Below are positions 11,595-36,631 of a stretch of 64,000 nucleotides of DNA, piece after piece. The DNA comes from Hausera hauseri (lineage: Eukaryota). Under the pieces are notes generated by a model that saw only the letters and a program-made list of their open reading frames with translations, did no database searches and had not been told where the DNA came from. Position 1 is the stretch's first letter; each line of letters begins with the position of its first letter. The DNA is taken from the NCBI GenBank assembly GCA_046269625.1, contig JBJURY010111096.1, positions 1 to 64,000 of the forward strand, in the 5' to 3' direction. The position numbers and the translations under genes are program-made.

Positions 11595-12028
11595 ACATCA
11601 TGGAGCAATATTACGACCTCAGACCAACGCACAAAGCGAACAATATACAAGTGCAATTTCATAAGCGAGTTTATTATGCGGGTATGCCAGTTGATTCATT
11701 GGAATTACAGAAAACTACCGACATGGCTGACTATTACGATGTAATTTCTAAAGGTTTAAAACTTGGTAGCATCATATTAAGCCATGAAGATTCTAAGGAA
11801 ATAAACTACGTTTTGAATCGGGTACAATTCAAGTTGATTAGTGGCAGTTATGTATGCCATTATTTACGCATTGCGAACGATTACAGCGATGCAATTCGTT
11901 TGGCTAAGGGATTGCAACCACAAGGGAAAAAGTATCATTCTAAGAGGTTCGGGGGTGGCATTGCTTTCGATTGCTCCGAAGATGATTTGATAAATCTTAA
12001 TAAACAGATTCAAGACCTTAACGCATGA
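11591..12028 (+). CDS. hypothetical early protein
   Basis: ATGA overlaps on both sides; GKKYHSKRFGGGIAF motif. Confidence 0.6.
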   Translation: MNIMEQYYDLRPTHKANNIQVQFHKRVYYAGMPVDSLELQKTTDMADYYDVISKGLKLGSIILSHEDSKEINYVLNRVQFKLISGSYVCHYLRIANDYSDAIRLAKGLQPQGKKYHSKRFGGGIAFDCSEDDLINLNKQIQDLNA

Positions 12029-12561
12029 ACAAGATTGAAAAGATTGTAAAAACTAAGGGCATCAATGGGCTGACTGATCAAGAAATCAGTCAGCTCTTGA
12101 ATGTACAACGTCCACACGTTGAAGAATTGGTAATCGAGTATGCAAGACGCAAACATCAAAAGCGCATTTGGGAGCAAGAAAGACAACAAAAAATACCTTC
12201 TTCTGTTGAGGCTTATGAATACATCACGCCCTTCTTGATGGGCTTGGAGGTTGAGCATTTTTATTGTCTGTATATGCGCAGAAATAATTCAATCATAAGC
12301 ATCCGCAAGATTGGGGAGGGTGGTATTAATGCTTGTACTGTTGATGCTCGTATCATTTTAAAACACGCTATTTTGTTAGGTGCTACCGCTTTGATTTTGG
12401 CGCACAATCACCCAAGAGGAACAAAGAAGCCGAGCGAATCAGATATAAAACTGACTAGGCAAATTAAAGAGAGTGCAAAAATTATGGAGATCATGGTAAT
12501 GGATCACCTTATCTATACTGACAATGGCTATTACTCCTTCGCTGATGAAGGGCAGATATAA
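12025..12561 (+). CDS. radC: RadC-family (UPF0758) JAB/MPN domain protein
   Basis: EHFYCLY, GEGGINACTVD, ILAHNHPRG..PSESD, DHLI..YYSFADEG. Confidence 0.9.
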   Translation: MNKIEKIVKTKGINGLTDQEISQLLNVQRPHVEELVIEYARRKHQKRIWEQERQQKIPSSVEAYEYITPFLMGLEVEHFYCLYMRRNNSIISIRKIGEGGINACTVDARIILKHAILLGATALILAHNHPRGTKKPSESDIKLTRQIKESAKIMEIMVMDHLIYTDNGYYSFADEGQI

Positions 12562-12566
12562 AGCAA

Positions 12567-12845
12567 ATGAAAAATCTAAATCTATTAAACTACTCCGCAA
12601 AGTGCGTAGTAGTTTACGGGGATGGCACGAAAGACCACAAGACTGAATTAAAGCAAATGGGCGGTAAATGGAATAGCCACTTGAAGCATCCACAAACGGG
12701 CGAAACCTTCGGAGGATGGATCTATCCAACCAAGAAAGAAAACGATCTCAAAGCCTTTATAAATGCCAATGCAAAGGAAGTAGAGAGTAACGAACTCGCC
12801 TACATTGATGGGGCGTTAATTGATGCTTACACTGGCGCAAAATAA
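12567..12845 (+). CDS. conserved hypothetical protein (DUF5710-like)
   Basis: YSAKCVVVYGDGTKDHKTELKQMGGKWN..GGWIY pattern. Confidence 0.5.
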   Translation: MKNLNLLNYSAKCVVVYGDGTKDHKTELKQMGGKWNSHLKHPQTGETFGGWIYPTKKENDLKAFINANAKEVESNELAYIDGALIDAYTGAK

Positions 12846-12895
12846 TTCAATCAATGGGGAGGGGTTCGCCTCTCCCCTTAAAAAGCTACCACAAC

Positions 12896-13051
12896 ATGAA
12901 AGCAAAACGCACACGCATCAAAATGAGCCTAACAAAAGTTGGTGAGGCGGTATTCTTAGTAAAGCACAAAAGTCCGTTCGGATGGCATTACAAAGGCATG
13001 ACCACGCAATCACTTGCGACTGCTCGGCAATGGTACAGATCGGGAAACTAA
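12896..13051 (+). CDS. small basic hypothetical protein
   Basis: Start MKAKRT is more plausible than 12854, which lies in a hairpin. Confidence 0.45.
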   Translation: MKAKRTRIKMSLTKVGEAVFLVKHKSPFGWHYKGMTTQSLATARQWYRSGN

Positions 13052-13085
13052 ATAATAATTTAAACCAATAAAAAACAAAAGCAAA

Positions 13086-13556
13086 ATGGGATTAGATATG
13101 TATTTATCAAAAAGAACCTACGCGGGAGCAAACTATAAACACCGCAACGTAGAGGGCAAAGTAAAACTAACTGCCAACAAAAAACCAATTAACATTAAGA
13201 TGGAGCGAATATCCATCATTGACGAGGTTATTGGGTATTGGCGTAAAGCAAACCATATCCATCATTGGTTTGTCACCCATTGTCAAGATGGGGTTGACGA
13301 TTGTAGAGAGGCGGAGGTAAGTAAAGAGCAATTATTAAAACTACTTGCCGACTGCAAGGCTATAAAAGACAATCACTCCCTTGCCGAAAGTGTTATGCCT
13401 ACTCAATCGGGGTTCTTCTTTGGCGGAACTGATTACGATGAAGGGTATTTTGAAGATATTAACTATACTATAAAAATCATTGAAGATTTGATAGACGAAG
13501 GCAACAAGGAGGGAGAATATTTAGGGTTCGATGTTTATTATTCATCATCTTGGTAA
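13086..13556 (+). CDS. conserved phage hypothetical protein (MGLDMYL / YWRKAN family)
   Basis: MGLDMYL, YWRKANHIHHWF, PTQSGFFFG, YYSSSW signature widespread in phages. Confidence 0.7.
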   Translation: MGLDMYLSKRTYAGANYKHRNVEGKVKLTANKKPINIKMERISIIDEVIGYWRKANHIHHWFVTHCQDGVDDCREAEVSKEQLLKLLADCKAIKDNHSLAESVMPTQSGFFFGGTDYDEGYFEDINYTIKIIEDLIDEGNKEGEYLGFDVYYSSSW

Positions 13557-13622
13557 TTGTTTCATAACAAATAAACTTAAAGCGGGGTGAAGCATCCGAG
13601 CAAAACACTTCTTAAACAACAA

Positions 13623-14012
13623 ATGGAAATCAAACTAACTAAAGAAGAAAGCGAGGAGTATTTCTACAATGCTCTATGCAACGGATTAAGCCTAATTGAA
13701 AGCTATGGCTTTGTATTAGATTATGATGAACCCAAGTATGAGGAAGCGAGGAAAAAACTTGTTGATAACAAACAAAATTCTTGCTATGATGATACTTTAA
13801 TGCAACTGCTTCGTGATGGTGGAACGCTGACAATGGTAGACATTGAGGGAGATGGTGATGGCAATAGCACCATCAATTTAAACGATGTGCATGAGCGTGT
13901 ACAGAAAACAGATATTAGGCATCTGTCTGACATGATTAACGAAAATGATGACGGAGAAACCGCAGACGTAATACTGCAATTCGTATTCTTCGGATCAATA
14001 ATCTACTCTTAA
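13623..14012 (+). CDS. acidic hypothetical early protein
   Basis: C-terminal DGETADVILQFVFFGSIIY motif; likely start MEIKL. Confidence 0.6.
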   Translation: MEIKLTKEESEEYFYNALCNGLSLIESYGFVLDYDEPKYEEARKKLVDNKQNSCYDDTLMQLLRDGGTLTMVDIEGDGDGNSTINLNDVHERVQKTDIRHLSDMINENDDGETADVILQFVFFGSIIYS

Positions 14013-14026
14013 AACAACAATCAGCT

Positions 14027-14440
14027 ATGTTAAAACTAAAAGCAATTATTAATGTTGATCTTCCTATAAAAAAGGATTTGATTAATTCGGGGGCATTTCC
14101 TCTCAACGTTGGCGCACTAACCATTCGCTCTAAGGATGGAAAAAGAGAATATGTAATTGATTCCTCACATACAAATTATATCTCCCCAAAAACAAAAGGG
14201 GGTGTTCTCTCCTTTGAATCTCAGTGCGATGTTGATCTCGAAATTTTTCCTTTGGCAAAAGACAATTATAATATTACCGAAGAAGATTTGCATGATTGTG
14301 TCGGGGTGTTTTATTGTTCAGATACGGATTGTGAAGATGGCGAGGATTGTTTTGATTATGATAAAGCAAGAGCAATAGCAATCATCACTGATATTGATAC
14401 TGAAAAAGAATATAAAATTCCTATAACGTTAGAAGTTTAA
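14027..14440 (+). CDS. hypothetical early protein
   Basis: 137-aa ORF in the array. Confidence 0.55.
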   Translation: MLKLKAIINVDLPIKKDLINSGAFPLNVGALTIRSKDGKREYVIDSSHTNYISPKTKGGVLSFESQCDVDLEIFPLAKDNYNITEEDLHDCVGVFYCSDTDCEDGEDCFDYDKARAIAIITDIDTEKEYKIPITLEV

Positions 14441-14481
14441 AAATCGGGAGGGGCAACCCTCCCTTAAAACCTATTAATAAC

Positions 14482-14979
14482 ATGAAACAATTAACAGACA
14501 AACAAAATCAAATTATAGCCTCGATAACTGAGGAGTTTAACAGAATCAACGAAAGCAACATTCCAAGTGGATCATTCAACTTGATTGACATTGATGGGCT
14601 GAACAGAAAAAATCGTGAAAACGCAGAGGATAGAGCCATGATTGAGACAGACAGACAGACATGGGAGAAAATGGCGATTGACGAAGCCAATACAATAGTT
14701 GAACTGCTTAAAAAGGATTTACCGCCCTATATAAAGGCAGAAAGAAAACCTAAGAGCGTATATCCCGAAATAACAATCTACGACCACGACCATAAGTATA
14801 TAATAGGCATAATGATCAAAGTTATTTATGAAAGAGTTGAACTGCGCCATGACTTTATTACTCAAAAAGGAAAAGAATTGAGGTATTGCTTTGCTAAATT
14901 AGAATGTTGCACAAAAGAAGAACTATTTCAATCCAATTACTTTACCAAAGAATTTAGAAAATTATTAAAACTCTCTTAA
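14482..14979 (+). CDS. hypothetical early protein
   Basis: 165-aa ORF in the array. Confidence 0.55.
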   Translation: MKQLTDKQNQIIASITEEFNRINESNIPSGSFNLIDIDGLNRKNRENAEDRAMIETDRQTWEKMAIDEANTIVELLKKDLPPYIKAERKPKSVYPEITIYDHDHKYIIGIMIKVIYERVELRHDFITQKGKELRYCFAKLECCTKEELFQSNYFTKEFRKLLKLS

Positions 14980-14982
14980 CAA

Positions 14983-15453
14983 ATGGAAACTAAAACTTAT
15001 TTGGTTACTCGTGCCGATACGAACAACGAGTGGAATCAGTGTGAATTTGGTATTATTCCGATTGATGACAAGTTTATCAAATGGCTTGAAACAATCAGTG
15101 ATGCCACTAAATTTATGTGTAAGACGTTAGCGGATGCTAAACATATCGACCAATATGACTTTCAAAATATCAAACTGAGAAATTTAGATTTGAATTTTTT
15201 TGCGAATGCAGATGAAATCTTTTTAGAGGATGAACATGATTTTATGATTGTAGATTTGAGCGATCGGGAGATTGAAGGTTTTACTGCATTGGATAGAGGG
15301 GTTTCATCCGATTACATACTCTTTGACGCAGTTGGCTTTATCCAATGGACTGCGTATGGCAAAAATGAAGGCGAAGAGTATTGGAGTATGGAATTAAGAC
15401 TTGCCAATATTATAAAACAATATACAACCTTTAAAAACCAAATTACTCAATGA
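14983..15453 (+). CDS. acidic hypothetical early protein
   Basis: 156-aa D/E-rich ORF. Confidence 0.55.
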   Translation: METKTYLVTRADTNNEWNQCEFGIIPIDDKFIKWLETISDATKFMCKTLADAKHIDQYDFQNIKLRNLDLNFFANADEIFLEDEHDFMIVDLSDREIEGFTALDRGVSSDYILFDAVGFIQWTAYGKNEGEEYWSMELRLANIIKQYTTFKNQITQ

Positions 15454-17043
15454 GTACAGAAGCAAAATTTCTTGTAAAAGACATATCGGGCAGAGGCTAC
15501 CGCTACTCCGATACATTGTCAAACATCTTACCTAAAATTAATAAGGAAGAAGATGCGGAATTATACGAGTGGCTTGAAGATGCGGAGTTTGGTGATGAAT
15601 ACACCGATATGCAATCAGCAACCAAATACATCAGAATAGAATAAAGTATGGACATATTAACTCTCATTCTAAACGTGATTGACAAGCATAATTGCTTTAG
15701 TCATTCTAATCTGACCATTGGTGATGTTCGATTTGTACGTGACACTATTGAGGTGTGGCGTGAAGATGAACCACTCGCCAGTGATGAAACACTAATCGAA
15801 AAAATGTTAATTAACTTAATGAACCCACCGAAATGACTAAAAACGAAAAACGACTAAATGAGTTCTTCAATCTAATTTACACTGAAGATGAAATTGTAGA
15901 AAAGTATTTCTACATCACTAATCCGAGCAGAGGAAAGCACTGCTCGGAAAAAGCCTTACGTAGAGGCTATAAAAACAACCGCATCGGCAGTATGCTACGC
16001 ATATACGATCCGATAGCTTATCAATTAACCATTAAAGAATATATACTATGATTACACAAAAAACAATTCCGCAAGGTGATGTTTGGATCAATGATGAATT
16101 GGGCTATCCCGAAAATCTTGGATGCAACGAAAGTGGTATTAAAGAAATATTGGGCGATCTTCTTCAAAAGATCGGCGATGAAAAGGGGATGCTATCTATT
16201 GTTAGTCTTGCCAACAAGTATTTGCCTATTGCCATAAACAAGGCACAAACACCACAAGACCTTGTTCTGTTTACTGCCACTATTCTACTTTACATCAGCT
16301 TCTATTTTGAAGATAATAAGCAAAGGGGAAGGAGCATGGAGGTAAAGGACATGATTGTTATTGAGAACCTGGATGAAATGGTTAAGAATGGCAATCCATT
16401 GGCAAAGGAGTTAAAGGAACTCATTAAAAGCGAAACGATGTTACGGAGCGCACTTGAAGAATCTCACCAATTAATTTACGCAGTATCTAAAATGATAAAA
16501 CAACCTAAAAAGCAAGGAGGTCAAGATGGCAAACAAGCATGATGCCGACAAAGTAATTATTAAGGAGTGTGCGGTGGGAACGGAATGGTTCAGCACCCAA
16601 CCCTCAAACAACATCCAATCGTTTGCGAGATCGATTGGCGTGGAGGTTAAAAGCCAATTAAACTACGTTATAGAGAAGGAATCGGGTACTTCATCACGTA
16701 TATGGAAATATACGATCACTGACAGACCGCAATTAGAGGAAACTGAATCAGCAGTAGAAATAAAGGAGGCACTATGAATCATAAGGTAATAAAAATACTT
16801 GACGTATTTTGTAGCAACCGGAAAGAGTATGGTGAACTGGTGATGATGGCTTCCGAATTGTGGGCAGTAGGATTGGCTGACTATAAGGACAATCATTTAA
16901 AGGAACACATCTATTCTGCCGATCCCGACATTTATAAAGAGAGGGAGGATGAACTAACAATCGAAACGAAGGATCTTTTGGCTCAAATACTCCCAATCTG
17001 TGAGAAGAAAGATTGTTGTTATTTTAGGCTATTAATATCGTAA
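15450..17043 (+). CDS. run of six coupled small hypothetical genes (15450-15644, 15648-15836, 15833-16051, 16048-16542, 16526-16777, 16774-17043)
   Basis: Co-oriented with overlapping start/stop codons; no recognisable motifs. Confidence 0.55.
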
Positions 17044-17053
17044 TTAGCCATTT

Positions 17054-17071
17054 ACAGCCCCGTAAGGCTGT
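17054..17071 (+). terminator. hairpin ACAGCC-ccgtaa-GGCTGT, possible terminator
   Basis: Lies between the stop at 17043 and a new promoter. Confidence 0.4.
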
Positions 17072-17107
17072 TATTAAAATTTTTACCTAATTTTACCCTA
17101 AAGGATA

Positions 17108-17115
17108 TATATTTG
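17108..17115 (+). promoter_or_regulatory. TATATTTG promoter, probably leaderless mRNA
   Basis: 4 nt before the ATG at 17120. Confidence 0.65.
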
Positions 17116-17119
17116 TACC

Positions 17120-18361
17120 ATGTACACGCTTGTAAAGAATAGCGAAAACGGATTGCAACCCTACTACGAAACCGATAGAGAGTTTGGTGGTACGGATGGT
17201 GCTATCTTGCTGATGATGGACATTTCATTGGCTGAATTAAATGAAGATAGGCATGGTGTATCGGAGGATACGTACAATGAGTTAAACCGATTGATGATAT
17301 TCGGCAGTGTGAAGGAGTGCATTGATTTTTGGTCAGCGCATCCCGAAGTAAACGTGAAAGAATTACACTTAATATTAACGCAGGAATTTCTTGCAGGACA
17401 AAAACTCTTATTCTAATGGCAGACATTAAATGGATCTTCAACGAAGGTCGTACAGTGGTGCTTGATTCACAAGCGATGAAAAAAAATGAAGTTTATAAAA
17501 TCTCGGAAGAGAGGGCGCAAGTTTTAACACAACGCCTATTACAATTTGCAGAAATGAGAATTAGATTAAAGGTTGGCGAACCCTTAAAATTCGCTTATGA
17601 GATTTGTGAAAACATAGAAGAGTTTATGTATTGCATTGAGTTTGCGGGTAATCTTGAAGGTAGGAATCAATTTATAGCTATGGTTTCAAATATTGATCCA
17701 CCGATGGCAGCATTGCTAAAACTATCATTAAGTGATTTCGTAAACGGAAAAAACAACCCCAAGTTACAATGAGAGTAGGAGTAATAATTATTTGGATATG
17801 CGTGATCGCCATGTTTGGTGTGCTATACGTCAGCCAATCCGCCCATACTGCAATAGTGGAGTACAAAAGAATTAACCCAAGTGGTGTAGTGGATTCAGCA
17901 TTATGCCAACGCATCATAATAAAATACCAACTTAACCATGCACAACAAAATCAATTCTATCGAAGCATCAAATGATCATTCGGTGCAAGAGCTATTCTAC
18001 GATCAAATCTTTGACGAGTTGGATGAAGAAGGACATTACTACTTCCGTTCATCAAGGATATGTTTGATCCGTAAAGGCAACTACCTGGTAGGCTCAAAAG
18101 CATCACTGGAGCGTGTGAAGTTGGAGGTGAGTGAACAATACTTTAGCAAAAAATTCAGACATGACACCCATAGCGACATTAACTAATTTAGACAGAGCAG
18201 TACAATGCTTGGTTAAAGATGAAAGCTTACACCTTAGTATGTTCATCACCCCGAAAGGATTACTCATTTATACACTTTATATAACTCATGGAACCAACCA
18301 ACCAAGAAACGAAACCGAGCCACCAACTAGAAACAATGGTGGCAACACTGCCGGAAACTAA
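17120..18361 (+). CDS. small hypothetical genes (17120-17416, 17416-17772, 17769-17975 membrane, 17938-18186, about 18161-18361)
   Basis: Coupled ORFs without recognisable motifs. Confidence 0.5.
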
Positions 18362-19454
18362 GGCAAAAGTCTTATTAGAAAAGTTTAATGATTACTTCGA
18401 CATTGCCTCGCAGTGGGAAGCCAAGCTTAACACCCTTGTCGTGACTGATGAAAGTCAAGTGGTGGAGATGCGGATGGCGGGTGAAGCTCGTAAATTCTTA
18501 AAGAAAAAGCGCACCGAGATCGAAGCAACTCGCAAGGAGATGAAGGAGGATGCTTTGAGAGAGGGCAACATGATTGATGGCATTGCGAAGGTGCTAAAAA
18601 GCCTTATCGAGCCATTGGAGAGCAAGGCGCAGATGATCGAAACATTTGCCGAGCGCATGGCAGAAAATCGCAAGAAAGAGCTTTATAACACCCGATTGGC
18701 GATCCTACAAGCGTATGAATACGTGGATGTAGGACTGATTAAGTTTGGTGACATGGATGAAGAGCAGTTTGAAGCCCACCGCAATGGCGTAGAGATTGCC
18801 TACAATGTTAAAAAGGAGAATGAGCGCAAGGCAGCCGAAGAACTCAAAGAGAAGCTAAGATTGACCAAGCTTCACAACGAGCGCAAGGAGTTGCTATTGC
18901 CCTATTGGTCGATGATCCCGATGGACAAGCGTAATTTAGATTTCAGCACGTACAACGAAGCGGATTGGGATAAGATTATTGCCCACTACAAGGATGCGAA
19001 GGAGAAGCAAGATGCGGAGAATAAGCGCATCCAGGAAGAGAATGAAAGGTTACGCAAGGAGCAAGCCGAAACGACACGCAGAACCACGATGCTAAAGCCA
19101 TACATGAGTTTGGTTACTGATTTAGGAGCGTTGATTTCTATGAGTAGTGAAGATTTAGATAAAGAAATGCAGCGATTGATTAAGGAGAGGGCAGAGCAGT
19201 ATAAAAAAGAGCAAGAGGAAAAGAACAAAGCTGCTGCATCTATACCGGCTACACCACCACCGGCAGTCACACCGCCCCCACCGGCTACATCAAACGACAA
19301 GCACCGGTTACTGGCTTTGATAGAGCAGTACAAACAAATCGAAATGCCGACCATGACGAGCGCAAAAGGGATGCAAGCGACCGTTAGCATTGCTGAGTTA
19401 AGAAATCGTTTCACAAATTATATAAAGCAGAAAGCAGATGAATTATCAGTATAG
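18288..19454 (+). CDS. long coiled-coil phage protein (DUF1351-like)
   Basis: VTDESQ..ARKFLKKKRTEIEATRKEMKE..GNMIDG; E/K-rich heptads. Confidence 0.6.
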   Translation: MEPTNQETKPSHQLETMVATLPETKAKVLLEKFNDYFDIASQWEAKLNTLVVTDESQVVEMRMAGEARKFLKKKRTEIEATRKEMKEDALREGNMIDGIAKVLKSLIEPLESKAQMIETFAERMAENRKKELYNTRLAILQAYEYVDVGLIKFGDMDEEQFEAHRNGVEIAYNVKKENERKAAEELKEKLRLTKLHNERKELLLPYWSMIPMDKRNLDFSTYNEADWDKIIAHYKDAKEKQDAENKRIQEENERLRKEQAETTRRTTMLKPYMSLVTDLGALISMSSEDLDKEMQRLIKERAEQYKKEQEEKNKAAASIPATPPPAVTPPPPATSNDKHRLLALIEQYKQIEMPTMTSAKGMQATVSIAELRNRFTNYIKQKADELSV

Positions 19455-21050
19455 CAAAAAGGTAGGGGGCTTCATATATGATTTCGATCAATGGGAGCGC
19501 AACATCATTCGCAAGGGATTGCGGATAGAACACAAGAAAATGGCAAAAAAAATAACTCCCGAAACGAAACCGCTTGTGGAAAGACTGGAAGCGATGATTG
19601 AAGGGTTGGGGGCGGAATATAGGCATTAAATTATGGACATAAAAAAATACATGAAGCACTTGCCAACTTGCAATATCATGCAAGATTGGAGCGAAGCATT
19701 AACGGCAATGGCAGACACGCCCGAAAAATTCAGAGATCGTGGATGGGAACAAGCCAGGAAGGAAATGAATATAAAAATGAGAACCTGTAATTGTGGCTTA
19801 ATCGAAGCGTTAGATTACTTAAACTCAAATCAAAAAAAATAATGAAAACACTAGCAATCATCATCATTTTAGTAGTAGTATTCGGAATGATCGGCATGAT
19901 CCGGTCCATGACACCTAAAAATCATAATAAATCGAAAAAATAAGAAATAAAAAATGTTCAAACTAAAAATAACCTACGGTGGTCGGGAGATCGAGATTGA
20001 GTGCGAGATTGACACTGGTTCAATAGGATATTCCTCTGACCACATCATCCAAATAGTTCAAGAAACAGTTAAACAAATAAAAATTCTAAACGAAGAATGA
20101 AAACGAAGTATTGTTGTGTCAGTAATTGCACAAGAGAGGCAACTGTTTGGCGAGGCAAGTTGATTAAGAGTAGAGATAATGTGGTCGCAGGGTTTTGCGA
20201 AGAACATGATGGTATTCCTTGTCCCAATCTATTTGGAAAGAAAAATGTTTACGGTATTTACAATAAAAATCTACAACTAATTAAATAAGATGAAAACAAA
20301 AGAAGAATTGATAGATAGAATATTATCTCGTGTTCAAGATGAACCGTTTACAGAACTTTTAGACATTTTTAAAGAAGAACTCCCCGACTACGACCCTCGC
20401 AGGATTGACGAGGAGAGATTGATTAAAATATGGGGGGAGTCTGAAATACATTCGGCAGAGCAAGCTATTTTCAAGTACAACTCCACTCTCCCCGAAGAAT
20501 TTCCCGTATGGATTAACGAGAAACCCGAACTGCCGGATGTGACGAAATTGGCAGATTTGATAGGTTCTCTGTATTCAAAATTAAATTCAAATTACGAAGT
20601 AGCCCAACACATCATCGACACCTACGCTCTACACTCGCAGAAGCGTGAGTGGTGGATGGATTGTGAATACTTTGTGTACAATGGAGTGACCCATAAAAAA
20701 GATTCACACCGAGTATATCCCGATGGCGGTGCATTTCTTTATTCGGGACTTAATATACTTTACGATGTCAAAGACTGCACCCCCTACATCGAGCCATCCA
20801 TGACCGAGCAATTATACGCAATGAATGTAACAGAAGAGCAGATTCAGCAACTTTTAAAGGAGAGAGGCAAATGAGGTGGAATACAGATAAAGTACAGCAT
20901 AAGCAAATAGTACTAACATTCTTTGCTTGGTTTCCCGTTACAGTCAGAGGCGAAACAAGATGGCTTGAGAAGGTTTCTATAAAAGGTTATTGGTTTCTTG
21001 GAAGTGGCAATGAAGATTGGATTTTCTTTAAGGAAAAATTCATCGACTAA
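19438..21050 (+). CDS. small hypothetical genes (19438-19629, 19633-19842, 20097-20288 Cys-rich, 20290-20874, 20871-21050)
   Basis: Coupled ORFs; 20871-21050 (59 aa, FFAWFPV..ETRWLE) is missing from the track. Confidence 0.5.
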
Positions 21051-21062
21051 AAAACAAAAATC

Positions 21063-21272
21063 ATGGATGAGACAATTGGCGTATGGTGTTGCCCTATCTG
21101 TCATGGGATGGGCAACATCAAGAAGCCTCACGGAAAGCAAAAGGAAATGGAATTGAAACGCAATCATGCTAAATCCTTAAGAGATATTGGATATTCCATT
21201 CGTGAGATTATGATTATAATGGGATACAAAAGCCCAAGAAGTGTACAAGATTTATTAAATCTAAAAGCATGA
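21063..21272 (+). CDS. small Zn-knuckle plus HTH DNA-binding protein
   Basis: CPICHG followed by LRDIGYSIREIMIIMGYKSPRSVQ. Confidence 0.6.
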   Translation: MDETIGVWCCPICHGMGNIKKPHGKQKEMELKRNHAKSLRDIGYSIREIMIIMGYKSPRSVQDLLNLKA

Positions 21273-21517
21273 TACTAACAAAAAGACAGTTATTGGTATT
21301 ACAACAAGCGATGGGATATGCTGTAATGTATGCAAAAACCGAAAGCGAAACTGCTGAATTTGCATTGCTGAAATTGGATGTTGATTCAGCAATAATAAGA
21401 TTGGAAGCAGAAGAACAGCAAAAAGCAGAACACGATAAAATGGGGTGCCCCTTCAATTATTGTTTTATGAAACCGCCATGTAAAAACCGTTGTCATATTT
21501 TTTCGAAACAGAACTAA
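21269..21517 (+). CDS. hypothetical protein, Cys-rich C-terminus
   Basis: CPFNYC..PPCKNRC. Confidence 0.5.
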   Translation: MILTKRQLLVLQQAMGYAVMYAKTESETAEFALLKLDVDSAIIRLEAEEQQKAEHDKMGCPFNYCFMKPPCKNRCHIFSKQN

Positions 21518-21520
21518 TCC

Positions 21521-21666
21521 GGTCGGGTGGCGGAATGGCAAAGCAGTCAATTGGTGGATGAAAGTATGCACTTAGTAGCTTGAACAACTACATAAAGACA
21601 AGAGACATCGGACTTAAAAACCACCGGAATAAAAACAAGTTGCAAGTTCGAATCTTGCCCCGACCA
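21521..21666 (+). ncRNA. tRNA-like RNA (Leu-like ends) with expanded central domain
   Basis: Acceptor GGTCGGG/CCCGACC plus A; D-like TGGCGGAATGG; perfect T arm GCAAG-TTCGAAT-CTTGC; 146 nt long. Confidence 0.7.
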
Positions 21667-21688
21667 CTAATAAAAATCTAAACGATAA

Positions 21689-22757
21689 ATGAAAGAAGCA
21701 ATAAATTCCGAAGATGTAAAACGATGGTATCAAATACTTATCGGCAAATCTGAACAAGCAATGTTAGAGGACATTAATAACACTTTACGCTCCCAGCCCT
21801 CTACATCGCTTCCGAGTGATGAGGACGAATTAATGAAACTGATTTTTGGAGATAAATATTTACAAATTGTTGGGGTAAGATATGATTCTCCCAGTCAATA
21901 CAACGACATTACCGGAGGCGTAAAACTTGCCATTAATTATTTTAAACCGATAATCGCTGAACTCGAAAAGGAGTTGAGGGAGGTGAAGGAGTTTACAGAA
22001 CAGGTGATGAGTTTTGCTGATGGAATGAAAGTGCTGGATGGAGATGCATTGCTTGTTCTGAAAAAAACAGCACGTAGAGTTTTATCGGATAAACCCACAT
22101 CACTACCAAGAACCTCGGCGGAGTGACGCACACAGAACCATGAACGAAGACGATCTAATCATACTCACGCAATTAATTAATAAGGCTGTAGAGAAACAAC
22201 AATACGGTTTTGCACACGAATTAAAGCAATTGCGAGATAGGTTACAGGTGGAATTAACTAAGGAATGGTTAAATAATATCTTGATTGAAGCAACGAAACC
22301 TTAAAAAATAATATCATGTTAAAAAAACTCAGACACCATGAAACTAGATATACAATACATCAACAGATCAAGATTTTTAAATCTAAAATACTATATTTAT
22401 CATTTTAGACAATACAATTCGCAACGAGGATTTATACTTACTCTTTTTGGTTTTGAAATCAAATATAGAGAATACGTATATCCATATAAAATGAGTTCTG
22501 TATTTCTTGTTTTTCAGAATAAACTTAACAATAACGAAAACCTCAAACCTATACCTTCATATTTATATGTTAGTGGAAATGTAAAAAGCATTAGTGAAGA
22601 TGCCAACCTTAAAGAATCGGTTCGGGGACTTTTCGCTAGCGAACCAGTGTATTTAGGAATTACGTGCGGAACTAATCCTACTAAATTTCCAATAATTGCA
22701 ATGAAAGATGGCAAAAGAACAAAATTAAAAAAATTATCTTGGATAAAAATTTATTAA
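21689..22757 (+). CDS. hypothetical genes (21689-22126, about 22140-22304, 22338-22757)
   Basis: Co-oriented ORFs. Confidence 0.45.
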
Positions 22758-22761
22758 AACC

Positions 22762-22989
22762 ATGAACGAACAAACTAAAGAACCGATGAACTTAATGGAC
22801 GGACTATTATATGAGATGAACAGAGTTCGAGAAATCATTAAGGAGTACGAAGCATTACCAAACAAAGCGGGTTTGCTTGGTGCAGCATTAATGAAGGTAA
22901 ACATTCAACAAGCGGAGTGGGCAATTCGCAATAACGATGTTGTTGAAATGTTAAAATATTATTCAGTGCTTAAAGAAATTGAACTATGA
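22762..22989 (+). CDS. conserved small helical phage protein
   Basis: EMNRVRE..YE..AG..GAALM..AI..NDVVEML pattern. Confidence 0.6.
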   Translation: MNEQTKEPMNLMDGLLYEMNRVREIIKEYEALPNKAGLLGAALMKVNIQQAEWAIRNNDVVEMLKYYSVLKEIEL

Positions 22990-23127
22990 ACCACACAACG
23001 AAATGGAATAGAGTGAGCGTAAATAAGCCCCTATTGGAGGCGATACGATACGCTAAGGAGAGTTTATACCTCAAAGGAGAAAAGCCTGCCTATAAAGTGG
23101 CTAAAGGGATTTCTCATACGGTTAGTT

Positions 23128-23379
23128 ATGGGAAGTGAAGAGAAAGGGGGTGATGTGAAACCGATGACACCTACTGAGCCAAAAGTTCAAGGCATAATAT
23201 TGATTGATTTTACAGTTCAATGTCCGCATTGCGATGAAAATATGTATCATTCTATGGATAGGAAGTGGTTTGAAAAAACTATGGGGTTTTCATTCCCGAC
23301 TGATGGAGTGGATGGCGATTATGAAGCAGAATGTCCGGAATGCAAAAAGTCTTTTGTGATAGAAGGATTTTCTCAATAG
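23128..23379 (+). CDS. zinc-ribbon protein
   Basis: CPHC and CPEC pairs. Confidence 0.6.
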   Translation: MGSEEKGGDVKPMTPTEPKVQGIILIDFTVQCPHCDENMYHSMDRKWFEKTMGFSFPTDGVDGDYEAECPECKKSFVIEGFSQ

Positions 23380-23386
23380 GTATTGC

Positions 23387-23524
23387 CACTAACGGTCGGG
23401 TATTGCCGAAGGCGGGGATTTGAAAGACAAAAGTTTCAGCCCTGCACAAATGCCCAATAGGATTACAAATGATTAATTAACCGAGAATGCCCTGCTTTTG
23501 GCAATACCTTGTTAGGTGCAGTGC
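23387..23524 (-). mobile_element. integron attC-like recombination site
   Basis: Minus strand reads ACCTAAC-AA-GGTATTGCC-AAAAGCAGG ... CCCGCCTTC-GGCAATACC-CGACC-GTTAGTG, i.e. RYYYAAC...GTTA ends with a long imperfect palindrome. Confidence 0.65.
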
Positions 23525-23544
23525 TTCTCACAAATTTTAAAAAG

Positions 23545-23721
23545 ATGAATAAATTTTTGATATGTGCGTTATTGCAAATCGTTCTTTTCATACCATTCTA
23601 TTTTATTTGGAGGAATGATTGCAAAACAATAGGTAAAGACAATTTAGCTGTCAGTTTACAAGAACGATTTTTGTATTGGCTGATATTTTGTCCAATTTGG
23701 TTAGTTGGTGTGTTGGATTAG
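23545..23721 (+). CDS. small two-TM membrane protein carried in the attC-like cassette
   Basis: MNKFLICALLQIV...; bounded by GTTAGGTGCAGTGC (23511) and GCATTGCACCTAAC (23721). Confidence 0.6.
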   Translation: MNKFLICALLQIVLFIPFYFIWRNDCKTIGKDNLAVSLQERFLYWLIFCPIWLVGVLD

Positions 23722-23768
23722 CATTGCACCTAACGTATTATTGCCGAACAAACCTACTTAAAAACGAT

Positions 23769-24122
23769 ATGATTCATGAATTAAAAACACATCCACAATA
23801 CTTATCAAGGGCTTTTCTCGAAGTCAATCAATATCCGAGTGAAAAAATACTGTTTACGGTGGGAGATACTGTCAGAAGCTATAAATGTGGATTTAATAAT
23901 GACAAACCTTTCAAGAATTACTTTATTGAAGGTGTTGTAATAGCGACCAAAGATAAAGTTTTAGGCGATAAATACATTGTAGTGAAATGGCAGATTGAAA
24001 ACTATTTTGGAGCGATTTACAAGTTTAAGTTGCCCCATGATGGTAGCGACACCTTCGCCATCAGCGTGTGTTGTCCTTGGCTTGTCAAAATAAACAAATT
24101 GCAATTGGCACTGGCTTTATAG
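23769..24122 (+). CDS. hypothetical protein, possibly chimeric (DUF3850/ASCH-like first residues)
   Basis: Starts MIHELKTHPQY and then diverges; followed by an attC-end remnant. Confidence 0.4.
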   Translation: MIHELKTHPQYLSRAFLEVNQYPSEKILFTVGDTVRSYKCGFNNDKPFKNYFIEGVVIATKDKVLGDKYIVVKWQIENYFGAIYKFKLPHDGSDTFAISVCCPWLVKINKLQLALAL

Positions 24123-24168
24123 CACTGCCACTAAATTCCCTCACAAACCAATTTAAACCAAGGATAAA

Positions 24169-24459
24169 ATGAAATTTAACCAAGATCAATTAGCCACGTT
24201 ACACAGATTGATAAAATCTGACTATGACGAGATCCCAAAGCGTTACCGGTCCGACATCCAACGCATCGAACACGCAAAACAACTTAGTTTAATAGCCTTG
24301 AAGTTAGGACTGGATGAACTAACGAAGCAGATAGAAGAAGATCTTGCAGCGAATGAGGAAAGAGAAAATAGGGGCGATCCGAATGAAGATTATGATAATG
24401 ATGCAGCTTACCGCAACGAGCGTGAATTAAATTACAGAAGGGTATTCAAAAATAATTAA
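24169..24459 (+). CDS. hypothetical protein, last of the early array
   Basis: Converges with the leftward operon at 24456. Confidence 0.55.
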   Translation: MKFNQDQLATLHRLIKSDYDEIPKRYRSDIQRIEHAKQLSLIALKLGLDELTKQIEEDLAANEERENRGDPNEDYDNDAAYRNERELNYRRVFKNN

Positions 24460-29648: not shown

Positions 29649-29967
29649 TTGCGTTTATACGTTCATGTAATTTTTCAATTGATTCCTTAGTGTTGCGCTC
29701 CATCTTATCGACAGAAGCAGCAATGTTTTGCACCATAACCTTGATTTCGGTTAATATTAAATCAGAGCGATGCATATCTTTTCGGATAACACCAAGCTCT
29801 TCTTCTTTTTTATCTAAACCTTGTTCCAAGCTCATGATTTTTGTATTTAATTCAGCGAATTTATCTTTGAATGATTTTTGAACTGACTTATACATTCCAA
29901 ATTGAACTCCAACCGAGAATATCAATGTTCCGAGTGTAATCCCTAAATTAGTTAAATTTCCATCCAT
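29641..29967 (-). CDS. membrane-anchored coiled-coil lysis protein (holin/antiholin-like)
   Basis: N-terminal TM plus coiled coil. Confidence 0.5.
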   Translation of the reverse strand: MDGNLTNLGITLGTLIFSVGVQFGMYKSVQKSFKDKFAELNTKIMSLEQGLDKKEEELGVIRKDMHRSDLILTEIKVMVQNIAASVDKMERNTKESIEKLHERINANA

Positions 29968-30427
29968 GTTGTGCGTTGACGATTTTTAAGCGTATATATT
30001 CTTGTTTAGCGAGCGCAGGGTGATTTTTGATGTATGGGAATAAGTGTTGATTGAACGCAGTCCTGCTATCGTATATGTGCTTTTTGTCGTGACGCATACC
30101 AGGTAAAGGACAGCCTTCGGTTTCTTCGTGGGTATTGCCCGGATGATAACGCACTCCAGTCCACTTATTCTGCCCATCAATTATTTCATAATTTTCTGAA
30201 TTGTAAATTATTGGCAAATCTTTTTGGAAACGATTACTAAAAGTAATGCCAACCATGTATTCGCCTTCGGGGATAGCAGTATCTCCTTGCAGCTTCACTC
30301 CTAACGGTCGAGCGACATCTTCCAAAACGTGACAAATAAAGGTATGATTCGCTCCATTATACGCATAGATGGACCCGAACGTAGCCGATAGTGTAAATAA
30401 ATTCCTTATTTGAATTAAATCATACAT
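29948..30427 (-). CDS. DUF5675-family putative endolysin
   Basis: ATFGSI, CHVLED, TAIPEGEY, SNRF, GVRYHPGNT..TEGCPLPG. Confidence 0.8.
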   Translation of the reverse strand: MYDLIQIRNLFTLSATFGSIYAYNGANHTFICHVLEDVARPLGVKLQGDTAIPEGEYMVGITFSNRFQKDLPIIYNSENYEIIDGQNKWTGVRYHPGNTHEETEGCPLPGMRHDKKHIYDSRTAFNQHLFPYIKNHPALAKQEYIRLKIVNAQHGWKFN

Positions 30428-30436
30428 ATTGCGTTA

Positions 30437-30455
30437 CGAAGTTATGCTATATTTG
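30437..30455. promoter_or_regulatory. overlapping divergent promoters (TAACTTCG minus; TATATTTG plus)
   Basis: 44-nt gap between the lysis and packaging modules. Confidence 0.55.
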
Positions 30456-30471
30456 TTTCAAACAAAAGCCT

Positions 30472-31185
30472 ATGAAAATCATTATGAACAATGTACTGGT
30501 TAAAAGTGATCCAAACAATGAGTTGGTCTTAGCCGGGGGATTCAAACTATTTTTAGACAATAGATTTGAACTGGAAAAAAATGCACCCCAGTCCGGTATT
30601 GTGGTTCAACTTCCCGAAAAATTAGTTTTTAACCACGATTCAGCCGATAGTACAATGTTCGATGTGAATATCGAGTTGCAAGTTGGTGATATAGTTATTT
30701 TCAATTACTTGGCACACGACTATGCTGTAAAAAGCGGTGCTGTGATTGATGGAAATATCCTTATCCGGTACGATAGCATCTACGTGGCTATTCGCGATGG
30801 TAAAGTAATTCCGATCAACGGAGGTATCATTGTTGAGCCATTGAACGAGCTTATCAAAACAGATCTTTACATACCCGATAGCTACAACAAGCGACTGAAA
30901 AATTTAGGAAAAGTCGTACATGCCGGTGTTCCGGATCGTGGACATTGGGGCCGACGAGCCGAGCCACCACAGCGCCCAATGTTATCAACTAATAGTGGGT
31001 TTTCACAATCCGACCGGTATGCCGAGCCAGGTGATCGAGTGTATTTTCATTACGCCAATGCAATTCCGTTGCAGCACAACCACGAGCTGCATGGTAAGGT
31101 CAGCAAAACGATTCTGTACCGGATGAATCATAGTGACATTGAATTAATTGATACGTCAGATAAACTAATTCCACATGAAGCCTAA
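30472..31185 (+). CDS. tandem GroES/Cpn10-like protein
   Basis: NNVLVK..GIVVQLP..LQVGDIVIF and a second repeat PINGGIIVEP..LYIPD..GKVVHAG..PGDRVYF. Confidence 0.7.
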   Translation: MKIIMNNVLVKSDPNNELVLAGGFKLFLDNRFELEKNAPQSGIVVQLPEKLVFNHDSADSTMFDVNIELQVGDIVIFNYLAHDYAVKSGAVIDGNILIRYDSIYVAIRDGKVIPINGGIIVEPLNELIKTDLYIPDSYNKRLKNLGKVVHAGVPDRGHWGRRAEPPQRPMLSTNSGFSQSDRYAEPGDRVYFHYANAIPLQHNHELHGKVSKTILYRMNHSDIELIDTSDKLIPHEA

Positions 31186-31867
31186 CGAACAACTTTTCGC
31201 CGATCGTGATTTTGAGAGTTTGATGTACCCGATCCAAGAACTCAAAAAAGGAGAATCTTTATTAACAAAGTTTCCTAATTTGTTGATAATGCCCTCTTTT
31301 GCCAATTATCATCGCCAAGAGGTAGGCCCGGATCAAGTGCTGTTGGATGTAAACCTGGTTATTCGATATATTATTTATGCCTACGACCGGGAAAGTCCGA
31401 TCGTTAAAAGATTCATGAACGATGTTGAAAAGCGCAAAACCCTGGCCAGTGATTATGCAGGATTTCCGTACAACGAGCAGGGTATTTTTTCGCTCGATGT
31501 TGATCGAATGATGAAGTGCAAGAACCGATACGTAAACTCAATGATCATTGATTACACGAGGCAATACAATGATCCCGAATACGCATTGTTAATAAGTGGA
31601 TATGATGCCTACTGGCAAAAGCTTACCCAGGCCACCACCGTTGAAGAAGGTGATGATGCAAAACGTGATGCTTTTCAGATTGAAGAAACAAAAGGTAAGA
31701 TTTTTGATCAAGCTCGTAAAATGGCTGGCGTACTTTCGGAGCTATCCGAAAAAATACTATCAGACGATAATAAATTATTGAAACAAGATTTTTATAGTGT
31801 TATTGACAAAGCTGTACGCAATCGGCTTCGTATTACTCCCGAGCGTGTAGCCGGATTAGAGGACTAA
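31175..31867 (+). CDS. hypothetical protein, candidate terminase small subunit
   Basis: Helical protein coupled directly upstream of TerL. Confidence 0.4.
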   Translation: MKPNEQLFADRDFESLMYPIQELKKGESLLTKFPNLLIMPSFANYHRQEVGPDQVLLDVNLVIRYIIYAYDRESPIVKRFMNDVEKRKTLASDYAGFPYNEQGIFSLDVDRMMKCKNRYVNSMIIDYTRQYNDPEYALLISGYDAYWQKLTQATTVEEGDDAKRDAFQIEETKGKIFDQARKMAGVLSELSEKILSDDNKLLKQDFYSVIDKAVRNRLRITPERVAGLED

Positions 31868-33993
31868 TGGAAATTGAAAGCAGATACCTGGAGGCTGAAA
31901 CCAAGATCATTTTTAACCAAGATGATCCCGATCTGCATCCCATAGAATATTTTATTGGTGAGCCTCCCCCGGTAGAAGAGATGCTCAATTATGAGCTGCC
32001 GGAAGAAGAATGTTACTGGAAGCGCTTTGCAGTACCGCCAAAGCTTTTAATGCTGGACCGGGATTTAACTCTTACACCACACCAAAAGATAGAGCAAATT
32101 GAACAAAATCAAGAGTACTATAAAAATGAGATAGAGTACATTTTGCGCGACATTGAGTTTGGGCAGAAAGGATTTTGGATGATCATCAAGGATCGCCCTT
32201 ACTATGTTCCTCCGCAATACTACCTTTATTTACAATGGTGGCCGATTGATGGAAAGTATGTAGAGTTCAGAAATCGGGATCGAAAATTTTTCCTTTTCGA
32301 TAAGATGGTTGATGAAGATCCCAATTCAATCGGCTTTAATTATCCCAAGCATCGAAGGGAGGGAGCGACCAACAAAATCTCTTCCAAACGGAAAAACCTG
32401 GCACAATCTACTGCTTTTGCTAAAGTAGGTATGCAGAGTAAAGACGAGAAACACGCCAAGAAAATTCATGAGGACATGATACTTATGAATTGGAGGTATT
32501 ACACACCATTTTGGCGCAAACCAGTTTACAACGGACTTAACAACGACACCACATCCCTTTCATTCAGCTCCCCCACTGCCAAGAGTAACCCCGATTATGG
32601 ACGCATTGCTCTTAACAGCCTTATCGACTTCCGGGATAGTGGTGAGAAAGCTTACGATGGATTAAAGCTTAAACACCTATTCAATGACGAGATTGGTAAA
32701 ACCGCAGAGGTTGACGTAAAGCGCAGGATGGAGATTCAGAGGCAGTGTTTAGCCGATGGATCTACAATCTTCGGAAAGATGGTGAACGCTTCCACCGTTG
32801 ACGAAATGGAGAAAGGGGGAGGAAAAGTATTTAAGAAGATCTGTGATCAAAGCCACTACCACGTAAAGAACAAAAACACCGGGCGCACCGCCAGTTGGCT
32901 GTATAATTTCTTCATGCCAGCCGGAGAAGGTTTTGGTGGAAAGATCCCCGAACCGCTACGCAAACAATTCGGTTGCGATACATGGATCGATAAGTACGGA
33001 TTTGATGTGATGGATCCCGAAACGGGCAGACCTGCAGCCGAGCTTTTTCACCTTTCCGTTCGCGAAGAATACCGCAGAAATAATGATTTTGAAGGATTGA
33101 TCGAATATACCCGGCAGTTCCCCTTGCGATGGAAGGATTGCTGGAAACAAGCTGTAAATGAGTGCAATTTCAATCTTGAAATCATTGAAGATAGATTAGA
33201 TCACTACCGAAATGGCAACACCGACAAACAGCGTGGTGACTTCATGTGGCTGGACAATATACCCGACACACAAGTAATTTGGGTTCTCAATCCAGTTTCC
33301 GGAAAATTTTACATTTCCTACCAGTTCCCGGATCCCCGCGATTCCAATAAGTATTTCATAAGCAATGGCATAAAGATCCCCGGCAATACTCGAAAGTTTT
33401 GTGGTGGGGGCGATCCGTTCAAGTTTAAGACCACCAAAGGCGGTAAAAAATCGTTGGGGGGCGGCGCAGTATTTATGAAGCACGACATAATACTGGATCC
33501 TCCGGGCCTGGATATTTCCAAGTATCGATCAAACAGATTCGTATGTACATACTCTAACCGGCCATCGGATAAGAAGATTTACGGAGAGGATATGATCATG
33601 ATGTGCGTTTATTTTGGTTGCGAAATGTTCCCGGAAATCAACGTGGAGTTCCTTTGGGATTACTTCATGGAAAGGGGTTATGGGGGCTATTTAATGTACG
33701 CAATAGATCCTAACACCAATAAAGTTAGTATTACGCCCGGAGCCAATACGACAGATAAAACAAAAGAAGCTATTTTTAGGGAGTATCAATTTTACATTCA
33801 GCATCATGGACATAGGGAGGTTCACGATGAAATATTGGAGCAATGTAAAGAGATTGAAGATGATATGGGTGACTACGATTTATTTGTTGCAGGAGGACTT
33901 GCGCTCATTGGCGCAGGGAAGCAGTCGTTTATTACCCAAGAACAATCAACAAGAGATATTGAAGAATTAATACCAACCTATTATCATAATTAA
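31867..33993 (+). CDS. terL: terminase large subunit
   Basis: KHRREGAT Walker A variant, YDGLKL..FNDEIGK Walker B, ASTV, RQFP, GGDPF RNase-H Asp, YSNRP, PEIN, DYDLFVAGG. Confidence 0.85.
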   Translation: MEIESRYLEAETKIIFNQDDPDLHPIEYFIGEPPPVEEMLNYELPEEECYWKRFAVPPKLLMLDRDLTLTPHQKIEQIEQNQEYYKNEIEYILRDIEFGQKGFWMIIKDRPYYVPPQYYLYLQWWPIDGKYVEFRNRDRKFFLFDKMVDEDPNSIGFNYPKHRREGATNKISSKRKNLAQSTAFAKVGMQSKDEKHAKKIHEDMILMNWRYYTPFWRKPVYNGLNNDTTSLSFSSPTAKSNPDYGRIALNSLIDFRDSGEKAYDGLKLKHLFNDEIGKTAEVDVKRRMEIQRQCLADGSTIFGKMVNASTVDEMEKGGGKVFKKICDQSHYHVKNKNTGRTASWLYNFFMPAGEGFGGKIPEPLRKQFGCDTWIDKYGFDVMDPETGRPAAELFHLSVREEYRRNNDFEGLIEYTRQFPLRWKDCWKQAVNECNFNLEIIEDRLDHYRNGNTDKQRGDFMWLDNIPDTQVIWVLNPVSGKFYISYQFPDPRDSNKYFISNGIKIPGNTRKFCGGGDPFKFKTTKGGKKSLGGGAVFMKHDIILDPPGLDISKYRSNRFVCTYSNRPSDKKIYGEDMIMMCVYFGCEMFPEINVEFLWDYFMERGYGGYLMYAIDPNTNKVSITPGANTTDKTKEAIFREYQFYIQHHGHREVHDEILEQCKEIEDDMGDYDLFVAGGLALIGAGKQSFITQEQSTRDIEELIPTYYHN

Positions 33994-33994
33994 C

Positions 33995-36319: not shown

Positions 36320-36383
36320 GAAAAAGCTGCTGCGATTAATGATACAAGTAACATAATTCCTCTGATCAATTCAAAGGTACTCT

Positions 36384-36620
36384 CTAAGCTTTCTTTTTTA
36401 CTACTGGCTCCCATCGGACATTACACTCAATCACTGGCACCGCTACTTTCAGTGTATCATTGTTCCACCGGTTAATCATTTTAAACATATTGGATTTTCG
36501 TGTGTACCGTTCGCTAGGGTGTACCGGTTCTCCGTTGCGAGCAACAAGACGAAAACTCCATTGTCCTTTGCTCTTTCTCCATTTAATAAATGTTACTATT
36601 GGTTTTTTACTTGCGCTCAT
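36384..36620 (-). CDS. DUF1508/YegP-like protein
   Basis: KSKGQWSFRLVARNGE..SERYTRKSN. Confidence 0.65.
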   Translation of the reverse strand: MSASKKPIVTFIKWRKSKGQWSFRLVARNGEPVHPSERYTRKSNMFKMINRWNNDTLKVAVPVIECNVRWEPVVKKKA

Positions 36621-36631
36621 ATATTTAAGGT

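Follow-up and report, generated by a model that had tools for sequence, protein, structure and literature searches.

The 341-nt unit at 23393–23733 (+) of the window, as we call the whole stretch of 64,000 nt of phage DNA analysed here, is quite likely a hairpin cassette of a family found in phages and Bacteroidota, which carries its gene in the orientation opposite to that of the hosts' cassettes and would be moved by a XerA-like recombinase of the host acting on a folded single strand. We read it as a cassette because of its hairpin, the fold of one strand only, the matching ends, the change of neighbours at AAC, the linkage of the hairpin to its flank, the mirror orientation of the gene and an attI-like motif.

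Phage genome

The window is the first part of a 74,829-nt contig with a terminal overlap of 77 nt, and this contig is a complete circular tailed-phage genome. It encodes TerL, a portal protein, a primase-helicase, an exonuclease and a resolvase-type serine recombinase, and a series of small genes on the + strand, at about 11,000–24,459, ends at the cassette locus. The family of the hairpin site points to a Bacteroidota host. With the cassette region as query, blastn against 50,697 GenBank phages gave no match, and neither did the same search with the site of the related phage locus L024; a plasmid search gave five weak partial matches, all in Flavobacteriales. A second copy of the region was not found in the source assembly, and three pattern matches on other contigs of this assembly were rejected as they were not hairpin sites.

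The gene for the serine recombinase (7968–8681, +) adjoins the primase-helicase gene and encodes the sole recombinase found in the genome; a link to the cassette is not evident. Three AT-rich repeats of 23–32 nt, with gaps of 94 and 61 nt, lie at the start of the early region (10496–10673) and are possibly promoters or an origin. Scans for promoters and terminators gave chance-level results only. A tRNA-like Rfam match at 21521–21666 (+; 35 bits) exceeds with its 146 nt the normal length of a tRNA and possibly holds an insertion, and the late region contains an ORF of 5197 aa at 42610–58203 (−).

Hairpin site and cassette ends

Based on its fold, and on a right arm that is found family-wide, an attC-like hairpin site TAAC...GTTA of 125 nt was located at 23390–23514 (+). 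The earlier note had described an imperfect palindrome at 23387–23517 with + as the folding strand, and this was confirmed: the DNA fold of the + strand reached −20.5 kcal/mol (z −3.12), equalled by none of 200 shuffles, whereas the − strand gave −12.2 kcal/mol (z 0.12), with 95 of 200 shuffles as good. The stem carries the L-box-like pair ATTGCCG / GGCAAT, with three unpaired bases on the AAC arm and none in the L-like box. An Rfam search of the window found only a tRNA and nothing credible at the hairpin site.

The left outer flank of the hairpin, GTATTGCCACTAA (23380–23392, +), looks like the right end of a preceding cassette, and the predicted mobile cassette (23393–23733) comprises the hairpin body, the GTT box, a gene for a protein of 58 aa and the closing ...CCTAA. 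The GTT box with its outer extension, GTTAGGTGCAGTGC (23511–23524, +), would find its partner in the circle at 23721–23734 (+), where the closing end of the cassette, GCATTGCACCTAAC, overlaps the stop codon. The complementarity that had been noticed between these ends holds at 13 of 14 positions, or 14 of 15 with one more base, and the single mismatch is a G-T pair on +. The further end strings were found likewise, GTATTGCCACTAAC at 23380–23393, TAACGTATTATTGCCGAA from 23731 and GCACTGCCACTAA at 24122–24134. When the circle is closed by joining 23721–23733 to 23393, the stem becomes longer (−30.8 versus −22.3 in the linear form) and the site reads ACCTAAC...GTTAGGT, which follows the consensus RYYYAAC/GTTRRRY. 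The end motif GCAYTGCMMCTAA, with one mismatch allowed, has four copies in the 64 kb, all within 23380–24134; shuffled sequences held 0.73 copies on average and reached four in 1 of 100 cases.

The hairpin detector described below found just one full site on the whole 74,829-nt contig, the window's own, so that the genome with one full site against a minimum of two is not a CALIN. Up to nine co-oriented sites in 5 kb were found in related phages (L024).

Site family in phages and Bacteroidota

A search for the site in other phages and in Bacteroidota, as the earlier note had suggested, revealed a large family in both. A scan with the right-arm motif gave at least 122 viral and at least 125 genome stretches, some of which are chance matches with no left arm, and among the 80 listed genome loci 68 belong to Bacteroidota or Ignavibacteria. 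The detector, which takes YAAC, a stem and GTTR with the longer spacer on the left and was derived from the same data, detected 389 sites across 276 loci (1.6 Mb), compared with 16 in reversed sequences; two of the 389 are copies of the site in the window. The sites form co-oriented arrays in phages and Bacteroidota alike, and the strand chosen by the detector was the better folder for 299 of 351 distinct sites. Within a cassette, the two ends agree at 7.3 of 10 positions in the viral (n = 135) and 6.5 of 10 in the bacterial set (n = 34), compared to 3.5 when both flanks of a single hairpin are matched and 3.7 for shuffled pairs. The median cassette length is 361 nt in the viral and 840 nt in the bacterial set.

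These likenesses raise the question of whether the unit is a classical attC cassette (CALIN) that came from a host integron and is served by ordinary IntI, with its gene inverted by a rare top-strand event or by chance. The circular site fits the classical consensus, and its G-T pairs favour one strand as they do in classical attC sites (PMC5027507, available part). Moreover, CALINs are known from phages, and IntI1 recombined five of the six sites tested, according to the text at hand of PMC9892861. However, the geometry differs: near-symmetric classical spacers were seen in only 23 hairpins in the same loci, against the 389 asymmetric ones. Cassettes common to phages and hosts were not found either when 135 viral cassettes were compared with 36 bacterial ones. 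Together with the orientation and the enzyme, discussed below, this makes a classical origin very unlikely.

At family sites Rfam gave no match in 14 locus searches. The Flavo-1 RNA motif (RF01705) is likewise a repeated structured intergenic element of Bacteroidota, as described in the accessible parts of PMC2864571 and PMC9723704; it was considered and rejected, since its one match in the array loci is a different sequence away from the sites and none was found in the window. Across the family, Watson-Crick pairing in the circle is rare at the seventh base after GTTR (5% of 129 cassettes); in the window this base makes a G-T pair, and the outer stem thus carries a conserved wobble or mismatch.

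The 58-aa gene and its relatives

The cassette gene (23545–23721, +) lies on the folding strand and encodes, judging from hydropathy, a membrane protein of 58 aa with both ends hydrophobic. The protein belongs to no PHROG or Pfam family, and an atlas search with it gave only leads below 0.9. On IMG/VR viral contigs we found 26 relatives of the gene with 66–96% identity; among 401 Bacteroidota genomes it was not found, in a search that had no positive control.

The upstream GTT box and the closing ...CTAAC are both kept in 15 of the 26 relatives. The closing end is kept in 18, and 17 different 30-mers come after it. We aligned the window with 11 of the 15 relatives that keep both ends; these 12 copies are unconserved upstream of the left TAAC and conserved on the gene side up to the right TAAC, and judged by this alignment the neighbours of the 58-aa cassette change at AAC. 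The end pairs co-vary, with GTTAGGTGCAGTGC/GCATTGCACCTAAC in eight rows and GTTAGTGGCTGGGC/GCCTTGCCACTAAC in four. In the outer stem 97.6% of the cells are paired, and three pairs are changed on both sides, which represents two variants and one evolutionary event. Several different hairpin bodies were observed among the copies, suggesting that bodies are also exchanged inside the site.

Seven distant relatives (66–83% identity) lack the cassette ends and are placed like any ordinary phage gene. A tree of 23 rows, with L260 and three partial loci left out, contained no starred branch, and its four most distant relatives are free of the cassette. A single origin of the cassette form was neither shown nor rejected by this tree (p-AU 0.43), which is too weak to give a direction.

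Which end is cut

The assignment of the hairpin to one of its two neighbouring genes was derived from pairs of sites with a flank in common. Viral hairpin bodies had a likeness of 0.80 among 127 pairs that share the 3' flank, the pairs not being independent of each other, and of 0.47 among 39 pairs that share the 5' flank, none of which reached 0.8; random pairs gave 0.50. The bacterial sites provided only one pair for this comparison. Additionally, 129 adjacent cassettes were compared, after 41 of 170 spacers had been excluded because their ends matched poorly. In all 129 the base before AAC equals the other end of its own cassette, whereas it agrees with the hairpin that it abuts in 113. Taken together, these two observations indicate that each hairpin goes with the gene on its 3' side and that the cut would fall within the AAC of the folding strand, which makes 23393–23733 the unit. 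The mobile unit predicted by the earlier note is thus supported by the linkage of the hairpin to its 3' flank, by the boundaries in the aligned copies and by the base before AAC. The exact position of the cut, A|C, we infer by analogy with classical integrons.

The extra bases sit on the AAC arm of the hairpin, opposite to the classical arrangement. By the classical rule (PMC5027507, in the part available) the − strand would then recombine. The variety of hairpin bodies among copies of the 58-aa cassette also speaks against the assignment. Linkage, folding and the polarity of attI instead make + the predicted recombining strand.

Gene orientation in phages and hosts

For the orientation count, we took the polarity from the asymmetry of the spacers alone and the main ORF between adjacent sites. 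Of the 135 viral spacers, 112 had the gene on the folding strand, none had it on the opposite strand and 23 were ambiguous, whereas the 35 bacterial spacers had it on the folding strand in 2, on the opposite strand in 24 and ambiguous in 9. Counted by locus, the ratio was 54:0 in the viral set (five ties) versus 2:9 in the bacterial set of 13 loci (two ties), with a Fisher p of 1.7e-9. An initial count, in which ORF starts within the hairpin had been disregarded, yielded 97:1 in the viral and 1:20 in the bacterial set, and the contrast between phages and hosts holds whichever strand is named 'bottom'. Accordingly, the inversion that the earlier note had seen in the window holds when its gene is compared with host cassettes of this site family, and it is shared by phages in general (112:0 vs 2:24). 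As the phage rule, it speaks against the accident that a classical cassette would need. The two bacterial exceptions are MAG contigs of 1.5 and 3.5 kb and may be pieces of phages.

As the folding strand in phages is also the mRNA strand, and an ORF starts inside the hairpin at 79 of 209 viral versus 9 of 93 bacterial sites, the hairpins could also be RNA elements or translation-start modules on the early transcript, the genes being shuffled by homologous recombination between repeats that resemble each other, with no site-specific enzyme. The mixed hairpin bodies among copies of one cassette would fit this as well. However, the matching 10-nt ends flank the gene and pair only in a circle, the boundaries lie at AAC, the folding strand in bacteria is the non-coding one, and Rfam gave no match; an attI-like motif and linkage to a recombinase are also present. 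We therefore consider RNA elements highly improbable and keep to the cassette reading.

The inversion is needless for expression alone, because a landing site could face either way. One idea is that mirror cassettes may be silent in the other party's array. Another is that the coding-strand hairpin of a gene co-directed with the fork may, by analogy, lie on the lagging-strand template, a position that raises the folding and excision of attC (PMC5371416, available part).

Neighbouring genes

The gene upstream of the cassette (23161–23379, +; alternative ATG start at 23128) encodes a putative zinc-ribbon protein of 72 aa with weak Pfam matches below the cut-off. In L277 and L278, with 77% and 88% protein identity, this gene comes after a full hairpin and ends in a matching ...GCTAAC; the likeness of these loci to the window begins near 23178–23184. 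Downstream, a gene for 117 aa (23769–24122, +) has 17 protein relatives, most of which start with a translated hairpin arm (..GAVSSRA..). It is a cassette in relatives and has lost its hairpin here, with a differing N-terminus. DNA context was available for three loci of these relatives: L296 has a hairpin and GTTAGCAGTAGGGC ... GCCTTACTGCTAAC, and the closing end is also present in L297. The start MIHELKTHPQY at 23769–23801 resembles the beginning of ASCH/DUF3850 phage proteins, and loss of the hairpin may have created a fusion gene here. Its cassette-type closing end GCACTGCCACTAA (24122–24134, +) lacks the C of AAC and continues into ordinary phage sequence, and no attI-like score was found behind it.

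The related ends that had been noticed right after the stops of the neighbours, GTATTGCCACTAAC at 23380 and GCACTGCCACTAA at 24122, were thus corroborated, and the neighbours are cassettes elsewhere. From these comparisons both appear to be former cassettes with their hairpins lost, and the locus appears to be a worn, decaying array that still has one intact cassette and a landing site, its other two genes having become fixed. A relative that lacks exactly 23393–23733 was not found, because the backbone genes have no close relatives: the exonuclease reached 31–32% identity, 24169–24459 had no relative, and the 117-aa gene had none in viral contigs. In one run holding the locus, probably the source sample and searched as contigs only, no excision joint skipping the cassette was found.

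Recombinase and landing site

A motif scan found eight tyrosine recombinase genes in 7 of 80 long genome loci; it missed the phage-borne recombinases, which tblastn detected. The six array-adjacent recombinases that were scored all had NF040815 (XerA-like) as best match, and on TIGR02249 they reached 179–235 bits in two pieces, with a cut-off of 265. The array-adjacent recombinase lacks about 43 residues of VchIntIA, its residues 254–274 spanning 185–248 of 2A3V. Messier and Roy (2001) reportedly described this integron-specific insert as the defining feature of IntI. The earlier note had proposed a host integron integrase. A host enzyme is indeed likely, but IntI is not supported, given the TIGR02249 score and the missing residues. 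Judging from its linkage to the arrays, this XerA-like tyrosine recombinase is probably the partner enzyme. The absence of IntI from the window extends to the whole genome, as the relevant tyrosine recombinase family was not found in the 74,829 nt (best tblastn E 0.53). For a classical cassette, an enzyme with no IntI insert beside the arrays is unexpected, as is the failure of one family member with IntI1 (PMC9892861, text at hand).

The recombinase was found at E <= 1e-60 in 28 of 121 Bacteroidota genomes. In a sample that started from the recombinase (29 loci, one of 30 having been dropped as its ORF was not found), a hairpin site lay within about 1.5 kb in 12 of 29 loci, all facing the gene, and an attI-like motif was present in 13 of 29 versus 3 on the wrong strand. 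Beside 7 of 8 host recombinase genes we picked by eye the motif AAC-N6-ATA(T/G)..., one per locus and within about 320 nt, which stands at the end of the array wherever an array was seen. With a matrix derived from the hosts, 27 of 43 hairpin-less phage array ends scored above the 95th percentile of 4658 control sites, with a signal at the 6-nt spacing only. The attI-like motif AAC-N6-xT(A/T)xxCG, derived from the same data, is thus common to the ends of phage arrays and the surroundings of host recombinase genes.

In the window, AAC-N5-ATTGCCGAAC at 23732–23749 (+) has no hairpin partner. It scored 7.4 with a matrix of the 43 phage array ends and a 5-nt spacer, three spacings having been tried, and 0.6% of 4658 control AAC sites reach this value; 5-nt spacers were also seen by eye in L010, L036 and L037. 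The earlier note had taken this place for a truncated second site. The sequence is present, but by its resemblance to array ends it is at least as likely to be an attI-like landing site, the alternative being a cut-down left arm of a hairpin.

Immediately after the landing motif, the same recombinase was detected in 3 of 152 viral loci (two distinct, one interrupted), a number that is a minimum because 42 of the loci measure about 600 nt or less and none exceeds 11 kb. These loci, L256:2180–3044, L030:229–1100 and L042:4170–4884, hold in a row a cassette array, an attI-like site and their own recombinase of about 270 aa, and represent a complete phage-borne version of the system, with the copy in L256 interrupted. 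Such loci could mean that the cassette is mobile but is moved by the enzyme of a helper phage, or is now inert, the host enzyme being inactive on cassettes of the phage type. The loss of the hairpins in two of the three cassette-derived genes of the window and the lack of cassette sharing between phages and hosts point the same way. Against this, the enzyme is found in only those few viral loci and not in the complete genome of the window, and the right arm and the attI-like motif also occur in hosts. A helper phage or an inert cassette is therefore unlikely, and we continue with the host enzyme. No strong homologue of the recombinase was found in the source assembly (best E 3e-14, on fragments), which does not imply its absence.

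At L161:13736–14887, an element that starts with a tyrosine recombinase of 262 aa cuts a family hairpin at its GTT. The recombinases of L332 and L334 are similar to that of L161 and are followed by a putative IS91-type transposase.

Proposed mechanism

In the proposed mechanism the + strand would fold when single-stranded, and a XerA-like recombinase would cut within AAC, as IntI does. The cassette would leave as a circle in which 23511–23524 is paired with 23721–23734, and the circle would enter at another hairpin or at an attI-like site. By looping out three to four bases of the AAC arm, the spacing between AAC and the L-like box would become about that of the double-stranded landing site, and this loop-out may replace the extra-helical bases that are read by the IntI insert. 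The phage of the window, which has no such enzyme, would use that of the host during infection, whereas a few phages carry their own. The early transcript would read the genes of the cassettes, which would consequently need no promoter.

On a wider scale, Bacteroidota and their phages could have one hairpin-reading recombinase system other than IntI with two mirror-image gene pools, in which the phages use the host enzyme in trans, turn their own genes into folding-strand cassettes and possess landing sites of the attI-like type. We offer this only tentatively, with somewhat less than even confidence in the whole. If it is true, a phage cassette in a host array, or a host defence cassette in a phage array, would face away from the promoter and be silent. 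The coding-strand hairpin would be exposed by transcription and, in genes co-directed with the fork, by lagging-strand synthesis, and phage arrays would reshuffle fast as a viral integron on a borrowed enzyme.

Relation to known systems

The system resembles the classical integron, as far as it is described in the available parts of PMC5027507 and PMC5371416, in its imperfect palindrome with RYYYAAC/GTTRRRY ends and one better-folding, G-T-rich strand, in the cassette ends that would pair in the circle with a crossover at the AAC end (here on comparative evidence), in the attI-like site beside a tyrosine recombinase, and in its promoterless single-gene cassettes in co-oriented arrays. It differs in three features. 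Classical attC sites have extra-helical bases opposite the cut AAC and a near-symmetric central spacer (PMC5027507, same part), whereas here the extra bases sit on the AAC arm; about 43 residues of VchIntIA are missing from the enzyme, whose TIGR02249 score stays under the cut-off; and in classical cassettes the gene lies on the non-folding strand ahead of the site, whereas the phage gene lies behind the hairpin on the folding strand, often starting in the loop. The host cassettes of the family obey the classical placement (24:2). In these comparisons, the unit of the window seems to work like an integron cassette and not to be a classical attC/IntI member on the three features tested.

Previously, 17 phage CALINs with attC-type sites in phages that lack an integrase were reported (Qi et al. 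2023, PMC9892861, part available). Among the six sites tested there, P12002L_attC1 from a Polaribacter phage was the only one with no verified IntI1 junction, and it had been predicted by HattCI alone and not by HattCI with INFERNAL. In our analysis this site is a member of the window's family and lies on the coding strand of methylase genes. On orientation, the available text of PMC9892861 goes no further than 'divergent directions' in P12002L; a systematic inversion, a landing site in phages and an enzyme other than IntI are not described there.

In Bacteroidales, rAID-1 comprises low-GC genes that all run in one direction, a XerD-like recombinase on their 5' side, more than 44% identical to BF9343_RS08045, and intergenic repeats said to be 'reminiscent of integrons' (bioRxiv 10.1101/471110, in part). 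We found Bacteroides-genus homologues of the array recombinase with 44–50% identity in 5 of 41 genomes, and a sixth at 40% that is linked to a transposase. Their loci mostly have DNA of lower GC downstream, and the hairpin detector found no site in the eight loci examined. The rAID-1 report, in the part at hand, deals with immunity genes of gut Bacteroidales and not with phages, and describes no hairpin model; the comparison was made by description. rAID-1 may be a host branch of the window's system.

Already in print, as far as these sources are available, are thus phage CALINs and one family site untouched by IntI1 (PMC9892861), and rAID-1 (10.1101/471110). Bacteroidota are merely listed among the phyla with integrons in PMC8618304, and IntegronFinder detected no integrons in Elizabethkingia (PMC11523902). 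In full-text literature that covers few subscription papers, neither inverted phage cassettes nor this pair of enzyme and site was found described. If the reading holds, site-specific recombination, and not random mosaicism, would account for much of the turnover that small early genes undergo in Bacteroidota phages, and viruses would be shown to use an evolvability device of the host with their own reversed grammar. It also points to an integron-like system in a phylum where the standard search can report none, and to an enzyme lacking the insert that was thought necessary for reading folded sites. The birth of new cassettes would become testable with the cassette-free relatives of the 58-aa gene that are part of phage backbones, and so would the origin of IntI from Xer-like enzymes.

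The cultured lytic Polaribacter phage P12002L (L328, NC_028924) holds at 29,900–39,250 more family sites than the two tested in print, and they lie on the coding strand of the methylase region.
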